Under the pieces are notes generated by a model, which saw only the letters and a program-made list of their open reading frames with translations, did not search any database and had not been told where the DNA came from. From the IMG/VR virus record IMGVR_UViG_3300042566_000678, positions 84,236 to 148,235 of that record: DNA of 64,000 bases. One strand, written 5' to 3'. Shown here one piece after another: positions 52,599 through 64,000 of this stretch; the stretch's first letter is position 1, and each line of letters starts with the position of its first letter. A program made the position numbers and the translations under genes. This stretch comes from a virus.

Positions 52599-55127
52599 TT
52601 AGAAACCAAAAAATTGTGAGAGTTTTTTTTCTGCGTGGTTTACCTTCTCCCATTTCAATGCTCTGTAAAAGTCATTCATCTTATTTTCCAACTCTGCTTC
52701 AAAAATCCTATCCACATCAATGTACTTTTTAACAAAATCCATAATTTCATCTGGGTCATTATAGTTTTTAAAAGCCACCGTATCCAATCCAAATGGATTT
52801 TGTTTTAGGTAAACCCATTTAATCTTATCACCATCCCTAATTGGCTCATACATAAATGCACAATTATAATGTTTGAGTAATCGGTTATATGTGATTGCTG
52901 CTTTAACGTGTGCAGGTGTTCCTTTTTCAAATGCACCTATTCGTTTATCCAAAGTTTTAGTATCATACTTACTAATCTCCTTTACTGCTCCACCCTTTGC
53001 TATAAGTGATGCATCCAAGCCAGATAAACTCAATTTGAAATCTCGTAATTCCCTATCAACATCCTCATTGGTTTTACCTGTTAGAATATCACGTAGGATA
53101 CCACTCATAAAGTCTTGAAATGCTTTAGGGAATGATGAACGAACTACATCCAATCCTTTCACATCCAACTTATCGCAAGGAATACCATTCTTTAGAATCA
53201 TCCATTGAGCGTAACGTTTCTTTGCTACCCAAAATCCTGCTTTGGAAATGTATTCCTTTTTAATTTCAAATCTGTGTTTATCCTTTGATATGAAGAAGAA
53301 CCTTTCAGCTAACATATCGTAGAACTTATTAAGGAATGATTGTGTTTCTTCTGCAATATCATTTACCACCGAAGCCATACGTTTCTCGTCAAATGTTTTG
53401 TATTCTGGAAAACGATGTTTAACCAATGGTTCTGCTAACATATAGATTGAATCCGTATCTATATACACATTGTAATCTTCTTTAGTACCTAATTCTTTTT
53501 GGTACTTAATGTTTGCCATCTCTGCCGTTTTCTTAATAACAGTTTGACCCGTAATCGTAACTGCCTCTGCATTATCAATATCGTAAAACCGAAAGGCAGG
53601 AAGACCAAGAACACCATACATAGAGTTAAGAAGAATCTTCTGAACCAACTGCCTTTTAGCATAAAATTCATATTTCTCCGTATCACCCGCTTCACCATAT
53701 TGCTTTTCTAATTTTCTAAATTCAACCCTTTGTGAAAACCATAAATCTAAAATATCTGCAATAAGTCCAGGCTTACTCTGGTCATACAGAACCCCATTAG
53801 CGGCTACCCCCAATCCGTGCTCCTTAATCATTTGTTGTACTTCACTTTTACTATAAGTTTCTGTACTACCTTCCGATGTTACATCATAGGTTTTATCCGT
53901 ACCCCTAATCCATTCTTCTGCATCCCAATTCTCAATCTTACCCATCTTTGTTTCAGGTGAGATATTTAGGGTCATAATGATAGATGGATATAGAGATGTT
54001 AAATCCAAGTCATAAATCCAATCATACTTACCAACGATAGGTTCTTTAACATACGCACCAATGAACTTCTCTTGATTATTATCATTTATTTCCTGCATCC
54101 GCTCTCGTCTATCCGCAGGTTTGTTTGGTGCTACTAAATTCTTTTGTTTAAGATAATTTAAACAAGCCCCTTCCAAATACTTTGATGAATACACAAAGTC
54201 CTCATACGGAACGTGTCCCGCGTGGCAGATGGCTCTACATAGTTCTATAAATTGTAGTTTCTTTTCTAAACCAACCACTAACTCAACGTCTACTATATTG
54301 TAATCAATGTATTTGTTTATATCCTCTCTGAATAAATCATCCAAATTACCTTTATATTCCAACTTACCTTTACCCAACTCTTTAGTTGCTATATAATTTA
54401 AGGTGTATGATGGTTCTAATGTATAGGTGTATGTTTTATATAAGTGAATATAATCTAATGCACTAACTCCAGCAAAACTCCAACGATTTCTGTATGGTGA
54501 ATAGAAGCATTCCCCAATAGGTGATAGACGAGTTGCATTACTCCTACCCAATACATTTGTAATACGATTGAATAGGTATGGAACGTCAAACGAATCAATA
54601 TTCCAACCCGTAATAATGGATGGATGTATTTCTTCATAGATTGTTAAAAATGCTCTTAACAAATCTCTTTCGTTACTATATGATTTAACAATCCTATTTC
54701 CAGTAGTAGTGTTTTTAACTTTATCATCCTTATCCAAAACCAAAGCATAGTAAATATCAGTTGCACTATCATGTAGAGCAATTGCAGTAATCTCATTCTT
54801 TGCTTTTTGAGTATCCGGTAGACCTGATAACATTTCCACCTCAATGTCAAATGTCATTATAACATGTCCAACCGATGGAATATCGCTTGAATTATATAAA
54901 TCTACTAATATACGAGTTGTTTCGGGAACATCTGATTCGAATAGGTTTGGGTCATCTTTTGTAAACTCATATGTTTTAGAAACTTTAACTCCACTTAACG
55001 ATGTTGCTTCACCAAATGGGTCAGGTCTCCAAGCATATGGTTTAAAATCTAAAACGTGATAACCTGTAAGGTCATCCCACAAATGTACTTTGTTTTTGCC
55101 CTTTTGATAAAATATATTTTGATACAA
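52599..55127 (-). CDS. Family B DNA polymerase (TTG start)
   Basis: FDIE exonuclease, DLTSLYPSI, KILLNSMYG, YIDTDS, KKRY; C-terminal clamp-binding LSQFF. Confidence 0.97.
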   Translation of the reverse strand: MYQNIFYQKGKNKVHLWDDLTGYHVLDFKPYAWRPDPFGEATSLSGVKVSKTYEFTKDDPNLFESDVPETTRILVDLYNSSDIPSVGHVIMTFDIEVEMLSGLPDTQKAKNEITAIALHDSATDIYYALVLDKDDKVKNTTTGNRIVKSYSNERDLLRAFLTIYEEIHPSIITGWNIDSFDVPYLFNRITNVLGRSNATRLSPIGECFYSPYRNRWSFAGVSALDYIHLYKTYTYTLEPSYTLNYIATKELGKGKLEYKGNLDDLFREDINKYIDYNIVDVELVVGLEKKLQFIELCRAICHAGHVPYEDFVYSSKYLEGACLNYLKQKNLVAPNKPADRRERMQEINDNNQEKFIGAYVKEPIVGKYDWIYDLDLTSLYPSIIMTLNISPETKMGKIENWDAEEWIRGTDKTYDVTSEGSTETYSKSEVQQMIKEHGLGVAANGVLYDQSKPGLIADILDLWFSQRVEFRKLEKQYGEAGDTEKYEFYAKRQLVQKILLNSMYGVLGLPAFRFYDIDNAEAVTITGQTVIKKTAEMANIKYQKELGTKEDYNVYIDTDSIYMLAEPLVKHRFPEYKTFDEKRMASVVNDIAEETQSFLNKFYDMLAERFFFISKDKHRFEIKKEYISKAGFWVAKKRYAQWMILKNGIPCDKLDVKGLDVVRSSFPKAFQDFMSGILRDILTGKTNEDVDRELRDFKLSLSGLDASLIAKGGAVKEISKYDTKTLDKRIGAFEKGTPAHVKAAITYNRLLKHYNCAFMYEPIRDGDKIKWVYLKQNPFGLDTVAFKNYNDPDEIMDFVKKYIDVDRIFEAELENKMNDFYRALKWEKVNHAEKKLSQFFGF

Positions 55128-55185
55128 CTTATTATTGGTTTAATTTATACAAAGATACGAAATATAAACCAAAAGAACAAATAGT

Positions 55186-55650
55186 TTAGTACATTTTTAC
55201 TAAACTATCTGCTGCGTATGTTACTGCCGCATTTGTTCCTTTGTGTCTACATTTGTAACCCATTCCTTCCACCATTCCTACTGCTTGACGGAACACTTCA
55301 TTTGATTTGAATTGTGGGTCTGGGTTTAAATCTACGTCAATATATGTTGCCTTTGGTAATCCCGCTTCTCTTAAATATTCTGCTACCTCAATAGAAGACC
55401 ATACTTCATGTATCAAACGATTACCTGAATAGTTCTCTCTATTTGTGTTCCAACGAGTGAAAAGTAAGTGAGCTCCTTTGCCGGGAGTATAAAGTGCAAT
55501 TACAATTGCATAGATTGTTTTTGTTTTGAATACTTGTGAATCGCATCCAATTAAGATTTCGATACCATCATTCGTAGATAGGTATTCAGATATATATGTT
55601 ACTAACTCTACTTTCTTTCTGTCAATTAATCTTCTGAATACCTTTTTCAT
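55186..55650 (-). CDS. RNase H-like YkuK/DUF458 family protein
   Basis: IGCDSQ, EVWSSIEVA, IDVDLN, AAD. Confidence 0.85.
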   Translation of the reverse strand: MKKVFRRLIDRKKVELVTYISEYLSTNDGIEILIGCDSQVFKTKTIYAIVIALYTPGKGAHLLFTRWNTNRENYSGNRLIHEVWSSIEVAEYLREAGLPKATYIDVDLNPDPQFKSNEVFRQAVGMVEGMGYKCRHKGTNAAVTYAADSLVKMY

Positions 55651-55655
55651 ATTCT

Positions 55656-56186
55656 TTACCTTATTTTAAATTTGTGTTTACTACCATCGCTTTTACTATA
55701 AATAACATATAATGGTGAAACTTCAAATTGCATTTCTCTAAACTTATTTGTATATTGTTGCCACTTACCTTTCTTTAAATAAGCAACCGTCATATGTGGA
55801 TGATACTCTGGATAATCGTTTGAATGTGGTAGTTTTTTTAAGAGTTCGTTTGCTCTTTGTAATCCTTCACCACTTGCATCAAACTTTAATACATCGTAAT
55901 CTGGGTTACCTTCGAAAATAGATGGGTTTGTTAGTTTAATATCACCAAACGGAACTTGGTTGATAATTTGAGAAACCACACCATCTGGTACATTTGTGTG
56001 TAGACCATATAGTAATGTAATGTGTGGTTCTGTTTCTAAACCATAGTGACCATTCTCATCATCATATACATCAACATTACTAATTGTACTTGTCAATATA
56101 GATTCATCAAAATCTATGTATAACATAGCACATCCATACTGATATGGTGTCTTTTGTATTTCTTTTAATATCTTGCGTAGTTTCAT
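55656..56186 (-). CDS. 2H phosphoesterase, Acb1/T4 gp57B-like (candidate anti-CBASS)
   Basis: PHITLLYG and YHPHMTVAY; start re-called to MKLRKILKE because the longer ORF runs into a tRNA-like gene. Confidence 0.8.
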   Translation of the reverse strand: MKLRKILKEIQKTPYQYGCAMLYIDFDESILTSTISNVDVYDDENGHYGLETEPHITLLYGLHTNVPDGVVSQIINQVPFGDIKLTNPSIFEGNPDYDVLKFDASGEGLQRANELLKKLPHSNDYPEYHPHMTVAYLKKGKWQQYTNKFREMQFEVSPLYVIYSKSDGSKHKFKIR

Positions 56187-56203
56187 TTTGTTTGGTTTAA
56201 TTG

Positions 56204-56352
56204 CTGTGGGGGCAGGATTCGAACCTGCAAAGGGAGATTCAGTAAGTAACACTTATGCCGGCCGGCTGGTGGTCTACCCCATATCACTTACCTATTTCTT
56301 TATCCCCGCCGTAGAGACGGTACGGTATGGCTGCCAATTTCACCACCCCACA
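56204..56352 (-). ncRNA. 149-nt tRNA-like RNA with a giant variable arm and a non-canonical anticodon loop
   Basis: TGTGGGG/CCCCACA acceptor, GCAGG-TTCGAAT-CCTGC T arm, loop CCGTCTC, ~80-nt structured extra arm. Confidence 0.75.
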
Positions 56353-56356
56353 ATTT

Positions 56357-56551
56357 TTAAGGTCTGCCGAATGTTATATTATTCTGTAACCTTATTTCTT
56401 TATTATTTAATACCCATATTTCACCATCATCCATACCACAAGTAAAATATAAATCGTGCTCCTGTGAGTAATCTATACACATAAATGCGTAACCTTTCAT
56501 ACCATCTGATATACGAATTATAGGTATTGTTGGGTTCAATTGTATTATCAT
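56357..56551 (-). CDS. Small phage hypothetical protein
   Basis: MIIQLNP...IDYSQEHDL...GEIW...NITFGR. Confidence 0.7.
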   Translation of the reverse strand: MIIQLNPTIPIIRISDGMKGYAFMCIDYSQEHDLYFTCGMDDGEIWVLNNKEIRLQNNITFGRP

Positions 56552-56579
56552 ACCTATAAATATCAATTTATATTAAATG

Positions 56580-56669
56580 TAGAGGATAGCGGATTCGAAC
56601 CGCTGGTAGGGTATTACCCCCACGACAGTTTAGCAAACTGCTGGTTTAAGCCAACTCACCCAACCCTCT
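56580..56669 (-). tRNA. tRNA-Ser(GCT)
   Basis: Cloverleaf, loop TTGCTAA, long variable arm. Confidence 0.92.
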
Positions 56670-56672
56670 ATT

Positions 56673-56747
56673 TGGTAGCCCCACCAAGACTCGAACTTGG
56701 AAATTCGCTTTAGAAGAGCGACGGTATATCCCTTTACCTATGGGGCC
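56673..56747 (-). tRNA. tRNA-Arg(TCT)
   Basis: Loop CTTCTAA, encoded CCA. Confidence 0.93.
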
Positions 56748-56753
56748 AGATTT

Positions 56754-56842
56754 GAACTAACTCACTGGAAACCTTATAGTTGAATTTAATCAACTTATGG
56801 GTTAAGCACTCCTTTTATGTTAGTTCCTCGTGCTCCAAGTGT
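56754..56842 (-). ncRNA. Candidate three-way-junction pseudoknotted RNA
   Basis: CACTTGGA/TCCAGTG, AGCAC/GTGCT, a long hairpin, and a GAACTAAC/GTTAGTTC pseudoknot. Confidence 0.45.
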
Positions 56843-56843
56843 G

Positions 56844-56929
56844 AGGAGAGTGAGGGATTCGAACCCCCGGCCCTGTTACAGGCTACGGTTTTCAAGACCG
56901 TCGCGATAGACCAACTCTGCCAACTCTCC
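56844..56929 (-). tRNA. tRNA-Ser(TGA)
   Basis: Loop CTTGAAA, long variable arm. Confidence 0.93.
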
Positions 56930-56935
56930 TTTTTA

Positions 56936-57283
56936 CTATATTTGTTCTGATGCTAAAGTATCCGATTCTATTTTGATTGGTGGATATTTCTTACGGATTT
57001 CTAATGAATCTTCCAATGCCCACTTTTGTTTAAGTTTGGCACGTTTCTCCATATTTTTAAGTTGTTCTTTTTTCTTTATAATATCTTTCGATAATTTTTC
57101 TATACGAACATACTTACTTGCATAATCCTCATCGGTTGCATCAACCCATTGAATTTTTCTTTGTAATTCTTTGATTTCAGTTTTTATTGTTTCAACCAAA
57201 GGTGCTTCATCACTAAACTTTGGGTCAATTGAACCACCCAATGTGTTGAATAAAAGCATAATAGACATTCCTAATTCTTTCAT
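56936..57283 (-). CDS. Coiled-coil hypothetical protein inside the tRNA array
   Basis: ORF track. Confidence 0.65.
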   Translation of the reverse strand: MKELGMSIMLLFNTLGGSIDPKFSDEAPLVETIKTEIKELQRKIQWVDATDEDYASKYVRIEKLSKDIIKKKEQLKNMEKRAKLKQKWALEDSLEIRKKYPPIKIESDTLASEQI

Positions 57284-57300
57284 AATATTTTTATTTAATG

Positions 57301-57371
57301 TTACCCGAGCAGGATTCGAACCTACCCTAACTGCACCAAAAACAGTTGTGCTACCGCTACACCATCGAGCA
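57301..57371 (-). tRNA. tRNA-Gln(TTG)
   Basis: Loop TTTTGGT, T1-A72. Confidence 0.9.
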
Positions 57372-57376
57372 ATTCG

Positions 57377-57450
57377 CAGTTCGTACGGGATTCGAACCCG
57401 TGGTCTCTTCCGTGACAGGGAAGCATGTTGGGCCTCTACACCAACGAACT
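57377..57450 (-). tRNA. tRNA-Asp(GTC)
   Basis: Loop CTGTCAC, G73. Confidence 0.93.
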
Positions 57451-57640
57451 AAATTAAAACAAACTTTTTGTGTCCTTTTACACATCATAACCATTTTATT
57501 GGTGGTTACATTTTCACGTTGGGTTAATTACTCCCTGCTTATAGTAACTCTCTCCTGACCTGTATGACTATTCCGGCTTCAACAGGACCATTTTAGATTT
57601 TATATACCATGGGGTTACACCATAGTCTTCGTTTGTTTTG

Positions 57641-57713
57641 AGCTTCCAATCGGAATCGAACCAATAACCTACGCATTACAAGTGCGTTGCTCTACCAATT
57701 GAGCTATGGAAGC
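57641..57713 (-). tRNA. tRNA-Thr(TGT)
   Basis: Loop CTTGTAA. Confidence 0.93.
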
Positions 57714-57718
57714 AAATT

Positions 57719-57901
57719 ATGTATCAGTTCCATACCGGCCTATTAGGAACTATTAGGGTTTCTCGGACGAGGTGCACAACCCAATCGGCTATAATGTGTT
57801 ATCAGTTACTTGGTTTCCACCATAAGGAATTAGTAAATGGGGTTCGAACCCACCTCATTGAATGTATGCCTACATCAACTTTCACTGCACATTTGATACA
57901 T
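57719..57901 (-). ncRNA. Candidate ~183-nt structured RNA containing a T-arm
   Basis: ATGTATCA/TGATACAT closing stem, GTGGG-TTCGAAC-CCCAT, several hairpins. Confidence 0.5.
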
Positions 57902-57903
57902 TG

Positions 57904-57977
57904 TACTCCGTACGGGACTCGAACCCGTAAGCTTCCACGTGAAAGGCGGATGTCCTAACCAATTAGACGAACGGAGC
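57904..57977 (-). tRNA. tRNA-Glu(TTC)
   Basis: Loop CTTTCAC. Confidence 0.93.
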
Positions 57978-57982
57978 ATTTA

Positions 57983-58014
57983 CAAATATAAGTATTTAAT
58001 TTCATAATTCCAAA
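57983..58014 (-). promoter_or_regulatory. Class II promoter with predicted start near the 5' end of tRNA-Glu
   Basis: TTTGG-N19-TATATTTG. Confidence 0.7.
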
Positions 58015-58032
58015 CTTTATCGGAATTATTTT

Positions 58033-58116
58033 TGGTGAGAGTAGAAGGACTCGAACCTCCGAACTCGTAGAGAGCTGATTTACAGTCAGCCGCAATTGCC
58101 ACTATGCGATACTCCC
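58033..58116 (-). tRNA. tRNA-Tyr(GTA)
   Basis: Loop CTGTAAA, long variable arm, CCA. Confidence 0.93.
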
Positions 58117-58121
58117 AATTG

Positions 58122-58193
58122 AGCAGGTAGTCAGATTCGAACTGACGTCTCCGGTTTGGAAGACCAGAGCACTAACCTCTGTGCTATACCTGC
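58122..58193 (-). tRNA. tRNA-Gly(TCC)
   Basis: Loop CTTCCAA, U73. Confidence 0.93.
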
Positions 58194-58196
58194 TTA

Positions 58197-58408
58197 TTTC
58201 CCCACATTGAGATTACTTGTGAGTAGTTATTTCGGTTTTTTCTTCTGTTCCAAAAACCTGCGAGGCATCCCTCATAAAAACAGTCAACACTACTGGGAGG
58301 AGGTGTGTCACTCTCCTTTATTCCCACGAAGTCCCACTCGCGCCGTAGACTTTCTGCGGAATCATTCTTTAAGTCTTGATTCGAAGACTTTGAGTATCTC
58401 TTACTCAT
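58197..58408 (-). ncRNA. manA-like structured RNA
   Basis: ~210 nt, many hairpins; GTTGACTG...GGAACAGAA...AGTAATCTCA segments recalled from the manA motif (not verified with Rfam). Confidence 0.55.
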
Positions 58409-58410
58409 TG

Positions 58411-58484
58411 TGGACCAGGTAGGAATCGAACCTACTACCTTTTGATTATGAGTCAACTGCTCTAACCGAGTGAGCTACAAGTCC
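58411..58484 (-). tRNA. tRNA-CAT (Ile2-like or elongator Met)
   Basis: Loop CTCATAA; GG..TAGCTCA..GGTTAGAGCA body resembles Ile2. Confidence 0.88.
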
Positions 58485-58491
58485 AATAAGG

Positions 58492-58599
58492 TGCCGGTGG
58501 AGAGATTGGTTACTCACACGATGTCCTTTTCGGTTACACCACCATACTAGTATAGGTACGTCTAATGGTTGTACTTCCCATTCGTTCCGCCACACCGGC
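58492..58599 (-). ncRNA. Aberrant Leu-like tRNA-like RNA with a hairpin inserted in the D loop
   Basis: GCCGGTG/CACCGGC-A acceptor, GGCGGAA..AGACGT D arm, degenerate T loop TAACCAAT. Confidence 0.55.
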
Positions 58600-58716
58600 A
58601 TATTTCTTTTGTAATGTCTGTACGGTTTGTGTCTTATCTACTCCTTTATACGAGCTTCAAAAGTTTCCATTTCATACATAGCGTCCGTTCCGTCATTCTT
58701 TCGAATCATTACAAAG

Positions 58717-58790
58717 TGGAGAATGTGGGATTCGAACCCACGACCTCTTGAATGCAAATCAAGCGTTCTAGCCAACTGAACTAAATCCCC
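58717..58790 (-). tRNA. tRNA-Ala(TGC)
   Basis: Loop TTTGCAT, G3-U70. Confidence 0.95.
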
Positions 58791-58793
58791 ATT

Positions 58794-58901
58794 AAAGATA
58801 GCTTATGATGTTCACATTTTCCATCATAAGAAGAAACGACCAGTCAAGTTGTGAATCTTACTTTACGTTGCCTGCAACAGGTGCATCTTACTTCTATCTT
58901 T
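58794..58901 (-). ncRNA. Candidate kissing-loop RNA
   Basis: AAAGATAG/CTATCTTT closing stem; two hairpin loops with complementary TTCACA/TGTGAA. Confidence 0.5.
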
Positions 58902-58902
58902 G

Positions 58903-58985
58903 TACTCGAAGAGGGACTTGAACCCACACGCCCATACGGACAAAACATTTTAAGTGTTTCTTGTCTACCATTCCAACATTCGAGC
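58903..58985 (-). tRNA. tRNA-Leu(TAA)
   Basis: Loop CTTAAAA, long variable arm. Confidence 0.93.
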
Positions 58986-59002
58986 AACTTATTTTAGTAT
59001 TA

Positions 59003-59034
59003 CAAATATAATAAAAATATTTTATATATCCAAA
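59003..59034 (-). promoter_or_regulatory. Class II promoter for the middle tRNA block
   Basis: TTTGG-N19-TATATTTG. Confidence 0.7.
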
Positions 59035-61218
59035 TTATTCTACATATTTTGTCCAACTATCTACATTAAAACATCCTCCACAATCGGATTTTTTTTGTAA
59101 TAATTTTTGAACGCTTTGAACTCTAATTTCCGATAAATTTGGATTGTTATAAGTATATAATCTATCTATAAAAATAGATGGTAATCCTTTAATGTTTAAA
59201 TATCTTAAATTATTATTCCAAACTAAAAACCAACTTAAAAGTGGATTTTTTGTACAATCCAATGATTCAATTTTATTATCATGCACCCAAAGTCCTTTAA
59301 GCATTGGGTTGCCACTCAAATTTAAAGCTGTCAATCTGTTATTTTGCATATACAATTGTTGCAGGTTTGGATTGTGAGTTATATCAATTGATGTTACACC
59401 TCTGGTTGTTCCGTATCCAGTTCTACCTTCTGTATTACCAAAATCCAATTCAGTTAAATTTGGATTTCTAGAAACATCAAATGTTACAATATCATTATCC
59501 CCTGCACCAAAGTATTGTAATTTTGATAATGAACTTACATCAATACTTGTCAATTTATTATCCCAAAGTGAAACCCAAGTCAGATTAGTATTTTTGGATA
59601 AATCAACACTACTAATTTCATTGTGAATAATTCTTAACCTTTGTAGATTAGGGAATGCCTCTATACCTCTGATACTTACAATACCCATAGGATTTAGGAT
59701 TTCTATGGTAGTTGCGTTTGCAATTGGTGCAGTTTTAATCCGCCCATCCAAAACAAAATCATATCCCCTATCTATTAGTGCTTGCTCAAATCTACTATCT
59801 GGCACACTCATATACTCCGGCAATGCCGATAGAGATGGTGGTGGAGTTGTTACAATTGGACCAGGTACAAATGGTGTAGATGGTGATGATGCCGTTGGTG
59901 GGGTAGGTACTATTGGTGCTACATATACCGGTGGTGGTGTATCATCCAATGTTCTGAAATTGCGTTCATCACCATATACTATACCCTTTGAGTTTATACA
60001 ATATGCTCTAATATAGTAGGTTGAATTTGGTATTAATTCATTTACATCTACCATATATCCACCCAAACCTTTCCCATATATAAGTTTTCTATCTGAAATT
60101 GTAGGTGTTTTTTCTCTACTAATAACCACACCCTTTTCAGTTACAGGTGTATTACCTTCATTTGTAACCTCACCACCAATTCTTGCACTCTTAAATGAAA
60201 TATTCCCAATATCGTTGGTAGATATTTTAGCAAATGTATAATCTAATGTTGAAAAATTGATTTCATCACCATATACAATACCCGCTTCATTTTGAGCGTA
60301 TGCTCTTACATAGTATTTAGTATTTACCTCCAATTTAGTAACTACTATTTTATATTCACCCAAGTCTGTGACTGATGATTTGAACTTTAAATCCTCCACC
60401 GATGGTTTTGGTGATTTAGATACAACTACACCACGTTCTTTCAATTCTCCCCTACCCAAATCTTTTACATTACCACTTAATGTTACCACATCTAATCCAA
60501 CATCCGTTGCAGGATTTGTTTGGATTGTAGGTAGTTTATACTCTAATGTTGAAAATGAAAGTTCTTTACCATACGATGTACCCATAGCATTTGTAGCAAA
60601 GGCACGGACATTGTACTTTGTTCCTGCTTTTAGTTTGATTACAACTAAATTGAATACACCCATACCATCACCTGTATTGAATGTACTATCGGTAGTTGTA
60701 GGTGTTTGGTTGGTACTAATGCAAAATCCTCGCTTTAATATAGGTGTTTCACCATCATCTGTAATATTACCATATAGTTTTACCGATGTTAGAGTTATAT
60801 TACCCAAACTATCGGTTGTTAAAGTTGGTAGTATATAATCACCAGTTGTAAAATTCTTTAATTGACCATATGCAATACCATATTTGTTTTTGGCGTATGC
60901 ATTATAGTAATAGGTTTTATTTGGTGTTAGTTTGGTTAGTTGTGATTTAAATATTGTAACATTTGTATCCAATTTAATGGTAGTACCATATCCACCAACA
61001 TCTGGATTAGTTGCGTAAATAAATCCACGTTCAATTGTAGGTGCATAGGGTACATCTTCTACTTTACCTACAATAAATGCTGATTTAAGTGTAACATTGG
61101 TTGCATCCTCTGTTAATACAGATGGTGGTAAATCAATAATCGTTGGTGTTAGTGCTTCTTCCTTTGCACACCCTAATAATAGGAAAATACCTATTAGACT
61201 GATTTGTAACTTTTTCAT
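59035..61218 (-). CDS. Surface lipoprotein: four FN3-like repeats, Pro-rich linker, leucine-rich repeats
   Basis: Lipobox LLGC; four ~88-aa repeats ending Y(Y/N)xxA(Y/F)xxNxxGxxYG; LRRs such as NxLTSIDVS. Confidence 0.88.
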   Translation of the reverse strand: MKKLQISLIGIFLLLGCAKEEALTPTIIDLPPSVLTEDATNVTLKSAFIVGKVEDVPYAPTIERGFIYATNPDVGGYGTTIKLDTNVTIFKSQLTKLTPNKTYYYNAYAKNKYGIAYGQLKNFTTGDYILPTLTTDSLGNITLTSVKLYGNITDDGETPILKRGFCISTNQTPTTTDSTFNTGDGMGVFNLVVIKLKAGTKYNVRAFATNAMGTSYGKELSFSTLEYKLPTIQTNPATDVGLDVVTLSGNVKDLGRGELKERGVVVSKSPKPSVEDLKFKSSVTDLGEYKIVVTKLEVNTKYYVRAYAQNEAGIVYGDEINFSTLDYTFAKISTNDIGNISFKSARIGGEVTNEGNTPVTEKGVVISREKTPTISDRKLIYGKGLGGYMVDVNELIPNSTYYIRAYCINSKGIVYGDERNFRTLDDTPPPVYVAPIVPTPPTASSPSTPFVPGPIVTTPPPSLSALPEYMSVPDSRFEQALIDRGYDFVLDGRIKTAPIANATTIEILNPMGIVSIRGIEAFPNLQRLRIIHNEISSVDLSKNTNLTWVSLWDNKLTSIDVSSLSKLQYFGAGDNDIVTFDVSRNPNLTELDFGNTEGRTGYGTTRGVTSIDITHNPNLQQLYMQNNRLTALNLSGNPMLKGLWVHDNKIESLDCTKNPLLSWFLVWNNNLRYLNIKGLPSIFIDRLYTYNNPNLSEIRVQSVQKLLQKKSDCGGCFNVDSWTKYVE

Positions 61219-61289
61219 ATTTTACTTTTAGATTTTATGAAACAAATATACAACATTTATTTCACAATTCCTAATTTTTTTAATAAAAG

Positions 61290-61359
61290 TTGCGTGTTCG
61301 GGGTTCGAACCCAATTGGCTTTCCTTATGAGAGATAGCTATTTTCCACTAATCCACGCA
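61290..61359 (-). tRNA. Degenerate tRNA-Met(CAT)-like gene with no clear D stem
   Basis: TGCGTG/CACGCA acceptor, loop CTCATAA, T arm TTGGG-TTCGAAC-CCCGA. Confidence 0.55.
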
Positions 61360-61362
61360 ATC

Positions 61363-61437
61363 TGGTGTGATTGAAGGGAATCGAACCCTTATTGAATGCA
61401 CCACAAACATTTGTCCTACCATTAGACGACAATCACC
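61363..61437 (-). tRNA. tRNA-His(GTG)
   Basis: Loop TTGTGGT, G-1 present, A73, CCA. Confidence 0.92.
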
Positions 61438-61438
61438 G

Positions 61439-61509
61439 AGGTGAATATTGGATTTGAACCAATGTAAATGGTTTTGCAGACCACCCCCTCGCCTCTCGGG
61501 CAATTCACC
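61439..61509 (-). tRNA. tRNA-Cys(GCA)
   Basis: Loop CTGCAAA, U73. Confidence 0.92.
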
Positions 61510-61514
61510 TTATG

Positions 61515-61586
61515 TAGTTCCATAGAGACTCGAACTCCAACTTTGACATCCGTAGTGTCAGGTGCTATCCATTACACCATAGAACC
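61515..61586 (-). tRNA. tRNA-Arg(ACG)
   Basis: Loop CTACGGA. Confidence 0.92.
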
Positions 61587-61591
61587 AATTG

Positions 61592-61662
61592 CACACCCAC
61601 TAGGATTCGAACCCAGAACAACGGAGTTGGAGTCCGTTATGATACCATTTCACCATAGATGC
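61592..61662 (-). tRNA. tRNA-Trp(CCA)
   Basis: Loop CTCCAAC, G73. Confidence 0.9.
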
Positions 61663-61813
61663 GTATTTACTTTCCAACTGAAAAAATTACCTCCAAAAAA
61701 TTTTTGGACCTTTACCCAAAAGTTGAAAAAGTGTAGGAATAATACGAACATCCCCCCGTAGTGGATTCAAACCACATTTTTTTCTCGTCTGGAACGGGGG
61801 ATAATTCGTATTG

Positions 61814-61887
61814 TAGGAATAATAGGAATCGAACCTATAACCGCTGACGTATCAGGTCAGTGCTCTAACCAATTGAGCTATATTCCT
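61814..61887 (-). tRNA. tRNA-Ile(GAT)
   Basis: Loop CTGATAC. Confidence 0.93.
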
Positions 61888-61890
61888 ATG

Positions 61891-61963
61891 TAGAGTAGGC
61901 AGGACTCGAACCTGCAACCTCACGCACCCAAAACGTGTAATCTAGCCATTGATATACTACTCT
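61891..61963 (-). tRNA. tRNA-Pro(TGG)
   Basis: Loop TTTGGGT. Confidence 0.88.
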
Positions 61964-61969
61964 ATATTG

Positions 61970-62042
61970 TGAACCCGTTGGGAATCGAACCCAAAACCCC
62001 TACATTAAAAGTGTAGTGCTCTACCAATTGAGCTACGAGTTC
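61970..62042 (-). tRNA. tRNA-Lys(TTT)
   Basis: Loop CTTTTAA. Confidence 0.94.
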
Positions 62043-62045
62043 TTG

Positions 62046-62122
62046 TGGTGGAACCTGTGGAAATCGAATCACACTCCTTTGGTTTTTCAGACCAACGTAC
62101 GCACCAGCTATACCAAAGTTCC
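62046..62122 (-). tRNA. tRNA-Phe(GAA)
   Basis: Loop CTGAAAA, CCA; irregular T stem. Confidence 0.85.
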
Positions 62123-62127
62123 AATTG

Positions 62128-62210
62128 TGGGAGTTGATGGATTCGAACCACCTACCCATGCAGGTTACCAGATTTACAGTCTAGCGCTTAACCAATTCAG
62201 CCTAACTCCC
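62128..62210 (-). tRNA. tRNA-Tyr(GTA), second divergent copy
   Basis: Loop CTGTAAA, long variable arm. Confidence 0.88.
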
Positions 62211-62252
62211 CGTTCAAATCCGATTTTGATATGTAGCATCGGGAACTACCTG

Positions 62253-62325
62253 TACTCTCGATAGGATTCGAACCTATAAAACCCGGTGTCTAAAACCGGT
62301 GACTTTACCTTTTGTCCACAAGAGT
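62253..62325 (-). tRNA. tRNA with TAG (Leu) anticodon but a short variable loop
   Basis: CCGGT-TTTAGAC-ACCGG, 5-nt variable loop, A73. Confidence 0.8.
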
Positions 62326-62337
62326 ATTTGTTGTAGT

Positions 62338-62856
62338 TTATTCATAACCCCTGTAATTTCTTAAATAAACATTTCTTTTATTATATTTTCTTTGAGAGTT
62401 ACCATTGTTTTTACTACCATAATTTTCAGTTTGTGAATGGCAATTTGGACAAAGTAATCTTAAATTATTCAAATTGTTATTATCAGAATTACCATCTATA
62501 TGGTCTAATTGTAATGTTAGTGGTCTACCATTCCATTCAGCTGATATTCCACAATCAAAACATTCATTTTTCACACTATCTTTTAGATACCTTTTAAGTG
62601 CAAAATTATTAGTAGATGTACCATTTAATATTTTTGGTAAACTTATTGTTTTACTTTTATATTCCGCACAGCATTTTGAATTACAATATTGTTTTACATA
62701 GTTATTTAATTCAGCATCACAATTTTTACATTTAGGTTTTGTTCTTCCACTTGTCCTTTTAGGATATACTTTATTGTTATATTTAGCAGCACAGCTATTT
62801 GAACAAAACTTTCTATTTTTTGGTATATCAATACCACATTCATTACATTTATTCAT
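62338..62856 (-). CDS. Free-standing HNH endonuclease with N-terminal Zn fingers
   Basis: Two CxxC...FCS/YCN fingers; LQLDHIDGNSDNN..NLRLLCPNCH. Confidence 0.9.
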   Translation of the reverse strand: MNKCNECGIDIPKNRKFCSNSCAAKYNNKVYPKRTSGRTKPKCKNCDAELNNYVKQYCNSKCCAEYKSKTISLPKILNGTSTNNFALKRYLKDSVKNECFDCGISAEWNGRPLTLQLDHIDGNSDNNNLNNLRLLCPNCHSQTENYGSKNNGNSQRKYNKRNVYLRNYRGYE

Positions 62857-62920
62857 TTTCGAACTATTTAGTGTTATACCTATAAATATACACTTATATA
62901 TTCAAACAACAATTTTATTG

Positions 62921-62994
62921 TGATGGGTACAGGATTTGAACCTGTAAACCTCTTGGATGTAAGCCAAGCGCTCTACCAATTGAGCTAACCCACC
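62921..62994 (-). tRNA. tRNA-Val(TAC)
   Basis: Loop CTTACAT. Confidence 0.93.
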
Positions 62995-63005
62995 ATTTCA
63001 CCATT

Positions 63006-63018
63006 ATGTCAAAGAACT
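63006..63018 (-). promoter_or_regulatory. boxA-like antitermination sequence
   Basis: AGTTCTTTGACAT between tRNA-Asn and tRNA-Val. Confidence 0.55.
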
Positions 63019-63026
63019 TATTCTTG

Positions 63027-63098
63027 CGTTGGTAATAGGACTCGAACCTATAATCTTCCGGTTAACAGCCGGGCGCTTCACCATTAAGCTATACCAAC
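63027..63098 (-). tRNA. tRNA-Asn(GTT)
   Basis: Loop CTGTTAA, G73; starts directly after the terminator U tract. Confidence 0.92.
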
Positions 63099-63133
63099 AA
63101 AAAAACCCCTAACTTTTTTACAAGTCAGGGGTT
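63099..63133 (-). terminator. Intrinsic terminator of the putative attenuator
   Basis: AACCCCTGACTT-GTAAAA-AAGTTAGGGG followed by TTTTTTT. Confidence 0.85.
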
Positions 63134-63160
63134 GTTTTAATTTAAGTATGTAGTTTGGTT

Positions 63161-63304
63161 TTATCCCAAGTCTACATCATTTAATATTGTTACCCCTAAC
63201 TGTGTTTTAATTCCTTTCGAACTAAAATCACACACGCGATTGCCTACCCATGCCAAAGTTGACATCGGTTGATAAGTAATCGTATGTAGGTTAAGAGTTT
63301 TCAT
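63161..63304 (-). CDS. 47-aa putative leader peptide (not in ORF track)
   Basis: MKTLNLHTITYQPMSTLAWVGNRVCDFSSKGIKTQLGVTILNDVDLG*; A-rich initiation context; contains the antiterminator arm at 63201-63192. Confidence 0.7.
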   Translation of the reverse strand: MKTLNLHTITYQPMSTLAWVGNRVCDFSSKGIKTQLGVTILNDVDLG

Positions 63305-63361
63305 TTCTTTATTTATAATAATATATATGTAATTTTTTTATTTTTAATTAAATTATTTTAG

Positions 63362-63432
63362 AGCGGTGGGATGGAATTGAACCACCTCATCCGACCTGGA
63401 CGGCCGGTATGCTACCGTAACACTTCCACCGC
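63362..63432 (-). tRNA. Non-canonical tRNA-Gly(TCC)-like
   Basis: GCGGTGG/CCACCGC-T acceptor; loop CGTCCAG (G33), A8. Confidence 0.65.
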
Positions 63433-63435
63433 TTG

Positions 63436-63508
63436 TGGAGCGAAACAAAGGAATCAAACCTCCTCTTCTCTACGGATGTAGAGTGTGCTATCGTTACACC
63501 AATCTCGC
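63436..63508 (-). tRNA. Non-canonical tRNA-Gly-like with a shortened anticodon loop
   Basis: GCG acceptor, U73, CCA; CTCTA-CATCCG-TAGAG; D loop lacks GG. Confidence 0.6.
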
Positions 63509-63518
63509 TTATATTATT

Positions 63519-64000
63519 ACGGATGAGAATACTCACGTAAAAGAACCAGCTTTCGTTGGATTATTGTTTCCCAACTTTTCCACTACCTTTTGGGTAGTAC
63601 CGATTCAATGCGGGTTGGTTAAGCCAACCACTCATAAAGTTACAAACTACTCTCTCTTTACTCCGCTTCTTCTACTCTGCCGAACAGATTCACACTTGCG
63701 GTGTTAGAAGTTTTTCGAAAGAATCACAGACCTCTTGCGGAGGTATCGTGGCAAGGAACAACTCCCTACTATGTACGCACCTTTCGTTTGCAACTGACGA
63801 ACACTTTTGCTCTTTTTGTTTATAGTTTGCACTAACAGGCAAATTGAGTTTGGTTCGTAGATGGTTTCAAGTAGTGGTTCGCCAACCTGCTTCGTTACCT
63901 TTTGAGCAACAAAATACTGAACTACTCGATGTGTTATCCCTAACACCATACTTTAAGTTTGCTTCATAACTCCTACCTTGGTAGGTGAAGAGTAAGGATA
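63519..64000 (-). ncRNA. 3' part of a large structured RNA, probably GOLLD-like; 5' end lies outside the window
   Basis: >480 nt with no credible ORF, GC-richer than flanks, dense hairpins (CCTCCGCAAGAGG, ACACCGCAAGTGT, CTACCCAAAAGGTAG), adjacent to tRNAs. Confidence 0.6.

Follow-up and report, generated by a model that had tools for sequence, protein, structure and literature searches.

A short open reading frame ahead of a phage tRNA gene array as the probable leader of a transcription attenuator

The window, analysed here by computational means, is the final 64 kb of a 148-kb virus contig (IMG/VR record IMGVR_UViG_3300042566_000678; GC content 33%). Its minus strand carries, in this order, a GOLLD RNA, a tRNA-like element, a tRNA-Gly gene, a 47-codon open reading frame (ORF), a terminator and a block of transfer RNA (tRNA) genes that begins with tRNA-Asn and ends at 61289 (block 1). 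We propose that the 47-codon ORF is probably the translated leader of a transcription attenuator of the trp/his type, which would gate at least this first tRNA block. The parts of the element, some of them defined with the help of an alignment of 24 leaders (alignment A2), are the following.

63305..63345, minus strand: AT-rich stretch 5' of the leader ATG, with a TATAT-rich box 8-15 nucleotides (nt) before the ATG in all homologues of alignment A2
63161..63304, minus strand: leader ORF, 47 codons plus TAA; about 30 distinct homologues share its start and have a homologous stop
63289..63298, minus strand: segment 1 (codons 3-6), the putative anti-antiterminator, pairing with segment 2 in the minimum-free-energy fold
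63193..63200, minus strand: segment 2 (codons 35-38), pairing with segment 1 or, as the antiterminator, with segment 3
63122..63133, minus strand: segment 3, the 5' arm of the terminator, with both 2:3 and 3:4 pairing in alignment A2
63099..63115, minus strand: segment 4, the 3' arm of the terminator and its T-run, which abuts tRNA-Asn

The terminator (63133-63104) consists of a 12-pair stem and a T-run that reaches the first base of tRNA-Asn. This leaves no room for a promoter, so that block 1 can be reached by read-through only. The AT-rich stretch is probably the promoter of the element and would give it a very short 5' untranslated region; in the homologue L126, the corresponding upstream box lies within a divergent intergenic region and fits the Bacteroidota-type motif -33 TTG / -7 TATATTTG.

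Compared with shuffled sequences, the leader transcript folds with a z-score of -6.9. In the aligned leaders the 2:3 antiterminator is paired in 96% of cells and shows compensatory changes at three pairs (11 cells); none of 500 shuffles reached the observed value, and controls in which the segments were slid dropped to 29-66%. The 3:4 terminator is paired in 87% of cells, and the 1:2 duplex occurs in all the leaders except L052 (23 of 24), with flanking pairs that change together. Two leaders, L062 and L067, have all four segments altered in concert. When transcripts ending after segment 3 were folded in our model, the 2:3 pairing formed with a ribosome at any of codons 1 to about 32 and was lost with the ribosome beyond; the limits of the sensor used below are those set by this folding model. 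A cmscan search of positions 55000-64000 with E-values up to 1 returned only GOLLD, tRNA and chance matches to plastid families, and no Rfam leader (His, Trp, Thr or Leu) or T-box.

Homologues were sought with a DNA pattern derived from the conserved start of the ORF, against viral contigs, metagenome contigs and bacterial genomes. The pattern matched 45 homologues in viral contigs and at least 13 in metagenome contigs, and every homologue listed from these two sources has tRNA genes on the same strand 123-291 nt downstream (45/45 for the viral contigs). Among at least 120 matches listed in bacterial genomes there is a single family member (L355); the remaining matches, about 119 and taken as chance, served as a negative control, and none of them has a tRNA within 500 nt. 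About 30 distinct leaders share the ATG and range from 22 to 53 codons. Their homologous stop lies about 60-76 nt ahead of the first tRNA in nearly all cases (92 nt in L091; L082, in which the first tRNA was not called, was left out of this comparison), and all insertions and deletions within the ORF in alignment A2 are multiples of three. The preserved ATG, the preserved position of the stop and the multiple-of-three indels all favour translation of the ORF.

The leader peptide itself is not conserved in sequence. Between the window and its relative L006 there are seven non-synonymous and two synonymous codon changes, two of them forming compensatory pairs in an internal hairpin. A protein homology search with the leader gave no more than three clusters (85-96% identity). 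Among phage GenBank records there was no relative of the leader, the only matches being to HNH, tRNA and GOLLD sequences.

Two rival explanations bear on whether the ORF is read at all, and to what end. The element might be an untranslated, structured RNA switch, binding for example a tRNA, a protein or a metabolite, in which the reading frame is incidental. The very strong structure agrees with this, and so do the compensatory hairpin pairs that alter residues between the window and L006, which point to conservation of the RNA rather than of the peptide. Such a switch would not account for an ATG, a frame and a homologous stop kept through about 30 variants with in-frame indels only. Neither would it account for a menu of amino acids far more diverse than that of random ORFs of equal base content, nor for a run of His codons ahead of tRNA-His genes (both described below), and no Rfam family, T-box included, was matched. 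We regard it as very unlikely. Still less probable is a small functional peptide that has its own terminator and no connection with tRNA expression. Its N-terminal octapeptide pattern is indeed conserved, and the few protein clusters are close in identity, but the conserved N-terminus overlaps segment 1 and the adjoining helix of the RNA, the length of the ORF varies more than twofold and most of the substitutions that separate close relatives are non-synonymous. Moreover, the terminator leaves no promoter room before the first tRNA, and the element stands directly before tRNAs in all the viral-contig members.

The codon content of the leader also speaks for an attenuator. Its first 27 codons specify 19 distinct amino acids, Glu being absent from the entire ORF. 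The sequence-only reading of this DNA had noted that these codons match the tRNAs directly downstream of the terminator, which are listed here.

63026..63098, minus strand: tRNA-Asn(GTT), first payload gene (ARAGORN and Rfam)
62920..62994, minus strand: tRNA-Val(TAC) (ARAGORN and Rfam)
62252..62325, minus strand: tRNA-Leu(TAG) (ARAGORN and Rfam)
62127..62210, minus strand: tRNA-Tyr(GTA), an extra copy not found in block 1 of the closest relatives (ARAGORN and Rfam)
61813..62123, minus strand: tRNA-Phe(GAA), Lys(TTT), Pro(TGG) and Ile(GAT) (ARAGORN and Rfam)
61363..61662, minus strand: tRNA-Trp(CCA), Arg(ACG), Cys(GCA) and His(GTG) (ARAGORN and Rfam)
61289..61359, minus strand: weak tRNA-Met(CAT)-like gene, mismatched in the anticodon stem (ARAGORN at relaxed threshold)

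The match is real: for every one of the 13 tRNAs that lie between the terminator and 61289, a cognate codon occurs among the first 27 leader codons. Twelve of the genes are called by both ARAGORN and Rfam, whereas the Met-like gene appeared only at a relaxed ARAGORN threshold and was reported neither by the standard ARAGORN run nor by the Rfam tRNA model. The finer points of that reading are likewise found in the sequence. His, Tyr, Pro, Trp, Arg, Cys and Phe have one codon each, that of Arg being CGC, the leader contains a CTA codon, and tRNA-Glu, whose amino acid is missing from the leader, sits behind its own promoter-like motif (58014-57983).

The chance comparison that it had proposed was made with 35,791 windows of 27 codons taken from 146 long ORFs of the same genome. 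At least 19 amino acids occur in 17 of these windows (4.7e-4) and, with strict wobble, all 13 anticodons in four (1.1e-4); none has both, although the two measures are dependent, since almost every set of 13 is covered once a peptide contains 19 of the 20 amino acids. The length of 27 is itself the point at which the 19th amino acid appears, and the statistic is best taken as a waiting time. Stop-free random ORFs with the dinucleotide content of the leader reach at least 19 amino acids with P = 4.9e-4, so that the base composition of a structured RNA does not explain the diversity. Synonymous choice leans the same way: the sensor of the window covers 21 of the 23 phage anticodons, against 18.3 expected under synonymous randomisation with genomic codon usage (p = 0.03, a value to be read with the relatedness of the loci and the restriction of codon choice by the helices in mind), and the long-form leaders all lean toward the same codon-level excess.

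The 13 of 13 match nevertheless follows from the near-complete menu and does not indicate tailoring to block 1. The sequence-only reading had itself cautioned that the leader also samples later blocks, and rightly so, as this applies to 10 of the 27 codons (four Thr, Gln, Ser, Ala, Gly, Asp and Leu TTG). Codons that block 1 can decode make up 16 of the 27, compared with 42% genome-wide, a marginal excess (p of about 0.05). Several of the individual matches lose their force on closer comparison. The closest relatives, L006 and L012, share the Tyr codon and have no tRNA-Tyr in block 1, so that the codon is older than the gene at this place. The choice of CGC rather than AGA carries little weight, as a single Arg codon readable by ACG has a prior of 0.32, and so does the CTA codon, since with three Leu codons the prior for one or more of them being CTA or CTG is about 0.37. 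The suggestion that Glu is absent because tRNA-Glu is headed by its own promoter was discarded as ad hoc: the leader samples other promoter-headed blocks, and most homologous leaders contain Glu even though tRNA-Glu always heads a later block.

This raises the possibility that the attenuator is real and the codon-tRNA match a by-product, the leader gauging overall elongation speed with a diversity that was not selected to mirror the payload. Coverage of nearly any 13-tRNA set by 19 of 20 amino acids and the share of codons that belong to the tRNAs of other blocks both speak for it. The comparison of leaders with payloads across genomes, made with the extended arrays of 28 loci, also bears on it. 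Two leaders with small payloads are referred to individually.

L221, 2603-2674: leader ORF, with a payload of two tRNA-His genes followed by a protein gene
L126, 12023-11949, minus strand: leader ORF in a complete 68-kb phage

The 23 long-form leaders have 18-20 amino acids within 29-44 sensor codons, one of them all 20 in 30 codons (p = 1.9e-4), and they head arrays which, with exceptions, cover 18-20 amino acids. Cys, Tyr, Arg, Asp and Glu shift in position between lineages while their presence is kept, and the pooled composition of the leaders is flattened, with Cys, Trp and Met at about 3.5-4% each against 0.8-2% in the proteome. In L221, three consecutive His codons directly follow the conserved N-terminal octapeptide (p = 2e-4 against the proteome background), and extra His was found at none of 659 pooled residues in other leaders. 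The payload of L126 consists of five co-directional tRNAs (Pro, Glu, Gln, His and Arg(ACG)), the other 13 tRNAs of this phage lying on the opposite strand; six of the nine variable sensor codons specify these five amino acids (p = 2e-3), and the Arg codon is CGT. The 22-codon leaders of L021 and its relatives (group B) are without Phe, Val and Glu and mostly without Tyr, in arrays that have no Phe or Val tRNAs and mostly no Tyr; here each of the 12 variable codons has a cognate tRNA in the array (p = 0.016). L038 shows the change of a Gly codon to Tyr, and its tRNA-Tyr lies directly behind the terminator.

Together the three enrichments, those of L221, L126 and the short leaders, give p = 1.4e-6, and the true pairing of leaders with payloads scores best among 24 permutations (59, against 53 for the runner-up). 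Regulatory codons cognate to the payload are clear in L221 and L126, whereas the 13 of the window are no more than its menu implies. Enrichment of small-payload leaders in exactly the payload amino acids, the shared gaps of group B leaders and arrays and the rank of the true pairing all count against a mere by-product.

At a fine scale, the correspondence fails. Losses of tRNAs in L063, L133, L026 and L075 left the leader unaltered, L153 lost its Gly, Gln and Pro tRNAs with a change in the Gly codon only, the array of L134 starts with tRNA-Tyr behind a leader that has no Tyr codon, and short leaders retain Lys without a tRNA-Lys. A leader that stays constant while tRNAs come and go speaks for the by-product explanation, as does the lack of a codon-level signal in group B. 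We judge that explanation unlikely, though distinctly less so than the two rivals considered above. The sequence-only reading had concluded that sensor and payload co-evolved and had proposed to correlate the two across related genomes. In our comparisons this conclusion is partly supported: leader and payload appear to correspond at the coarse scale, while recent gains and losses of tRNAs mostly go unmatched and the leader of the window shows no tailoring to block 1.

If the element is an attenuator, it may work as follows. A ribosome held up anywhere in about the first 32 codons would keep segment 1 off segment 2; segment 2 would then pair with segment 3, and RNA polymerase would run on into the tRNA genes. 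A ribosome keeping pace would be on or past segment 2 as segment 3 emerges, allowing the terminator to form, and with no translation the 1:2 pairing would lead to termination as well. As the menu offers about one codon each for nearly all amino acids, transcription of the tRNAs would rise whenever any one of these is decoded slowly. Over longer evolutionary distances the menu would follow the payload, payloads of one and five tRNAs having leaders rich in those amino acids. A possible role is to make up for host tRNAs that have been depleted or cleaved. On balance we favour the broader view that phage tRNA genes are under feedback from translation speed, with a leader codon menu that evolves with the payload, from leaders dedicated to His to leaders with all 20 amino acids, and hold it with somewhat less assurance than the attenuator itself.

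Besides the fine-scale failures, several points weigh against these interpretations. Equilibrium folding with the full terminator always prefers the terminator, so that the switch must be kinetic. In the lineage of the window, about 30 nt separate segment 2 from the stop codon beyond it, and a terminating ribosome would leave segment 2 unmasked; refolding of 1:2 behind the ribosome must therefore be assumed. Each amino acid occurs just once or twice in the leader, so that any response to the scarcity of a single tRNA is hypothetical. The statistics on payload tracking come from three independent lineages and depend on modelled sensor limits, and L221 is a single 3-kb contig. Finally, metatranscriptome contigs cover the GOLLD RNA and a few tRNAs and not positions 63080-63361, and are uninformative on expression of the leader or on termination.

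The surroundings of the leader in the window include the following further features.

63520-63929, minus strand: GOLLD RNA, a complete match to Rfam RF02032 (295 bits)
63437-63510, minus strand: tRNA-like gene with a malformed anticodon loop (ARAGORN anticodon 'tc')
62338-62856, minus strand: HNH-type endonuclease ORF of 172 residues, inserted between tRNA-Val and tRNA-Leu(TAG)
58014-57983, minus strand: promoter-like motif TTTG-N20-TATATTTG, directly ahead of tRNA-Glu

The GOLLD RNA lies 216 nt upstream of the leader, and it is also upstream of the leader in all the relatives checked (L005, L012, L021, L033 and L038). The leader element itself is outside the Rfam model, and its being a part of GOLLD was ruled out on this ground. 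Contigs carrying the GOLLD stretch or close relatives of it occur in freshwater and estuary metatranscriptomes, at a summed depth in the thousands. The tRNA-like gene with the malformed loop is kept between GOLLD and the leader in several relatives (L005:3186-3258, L012:2232-2304). Upstream of GOLLD, these and other relatives carry a transfer-messenger RNA (tmRNA) with an unusually long tag peptide, followed by tRNA-Met (L005:511-898, L012:514-900, L021:2309-2709 and relatives); in the window contig the corresponding position would fall past the contig end (64000).

Within block 1, the HNH ORF is missing from the closest relatives, L006 and L012, in which tRNA-Val and tRNA-Leu(TAG) adjoin, and its DNA is similar to that of HNH genes in T4-like and jumbo phages. 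The 150-nt spacer that separates tRNA-Ile from tRNA-Trp (61663-61812, minus strand) contains two strong hairpins (z of about -2.9), and when the threshold is relaxed it yields weak tRNA-like calls; a decayed tRNA or some other small RNA may lie here. Beyond the block, the array is split by a 727-residue ORF (59035-61218, minus strand) with repeated domains and a lipoprotein-type signal, that is, a Cys after a hydrophobic N-terminus. This ORF has its own TATATTTG promoter-like motif near 61243, and motifs of the same Bacteroidota type, TTTG-N20-TATATTTG, precede tRNA-Leu(TAA) and tRNA-Glu. None of the other tRNA spacers of the window holds a comparable ORF-plus-terminator element.

Some observations concern the homologues themselves. 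The cassette of leader and five tRNAs in L126 (L126:11400-12137) is missing from L142, whose neighbouring 809-residue gene is 99% identical, and it thus seems to have come or gone as a whole; relatives of the 68-kb phage lack the cassette or have no nearby tRNAs. Between its tRNA-His and tRNA-Arg (L126:11520-11605, minus strand) the cassette holds a tRNA-like gene of 82 nt whose extra arm is long, called as tRNA-Pro(TGG) at a relaxed threshold only. The L221 contig has no relatives among the viral contigs, and Pfam was uninformative on its ORFs. A tRNA-Ser of L021 (5012-5097), with counterparts in further short-leader arrays, carries the anticodon ACT instead of the GCT found elsewhere; an ACT anticodon, with A at position 34, is unusual for bacteria and phages.

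To our knowledge, almost nothing is known of how phage tRNA genes are regulated, and no account of attenuators ahead of tRNA genes was found in the literature. If the proposal is true, it describes a general and unpublished mode of tRNA gene control, by which a phage turns on its own tRNAs in response to slower decoding, such as might follow the depletion of host tRNAs or their cleavage by defence nucleases. Its confirmation would show classical attenuation applied to tRNA supply, with a leader that senses decoding speed over nearly all amino acids and whose codon content is tuned to the tRNAs under its control. It would also connect phage tRNA arrays, in a testable way, with the depletion of tRNAs in infection, and would provide an annotation signature for such arrays: a short diverse ORF, then a terminator, then tRNAs.

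Attenuators with leader peptides are known for trpL, hisL, leuL, thrL and pheL, for the multivalent ilvGMEDA leader and for enterobacterial pheST. Like the attenuators of amino-acid operons, the element described here has a short translatable ORF over segment 1, alternative 1:2, 2:3 and 3:4 pairings, and an intrinsic terminator directly before the payload. Codons cognate to the payload are a clear likeness in L221, whose His run resembles hisL, and in L126. It differs from them in that the payload is a set of phage tRNA genes and not biosynthetic enzymes or a synthetase, and in that the leader of the window offers about one codon for nearly every amino acid instead of a run of one or a few codons. 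In addition, segments 2 and 3 are 55-75 nt apart with the stop codon between them, and no Rfam leader model matches. T-box riboswitches similarly couple tRNA status to terminator read-through before translation-related genes, but they bind uncharged tRNA directly and need no ORF, whereas a conserved ORF and no T-box match are found here. GOLLD RNA (Rfam RF02032) shares the neighbourhood of phage tRNA genes with the leader and is a separate RNA: the L126 cassette directly follows a divergent protein gene and an intergenic promoter region, with no room for GOLLD upstream.

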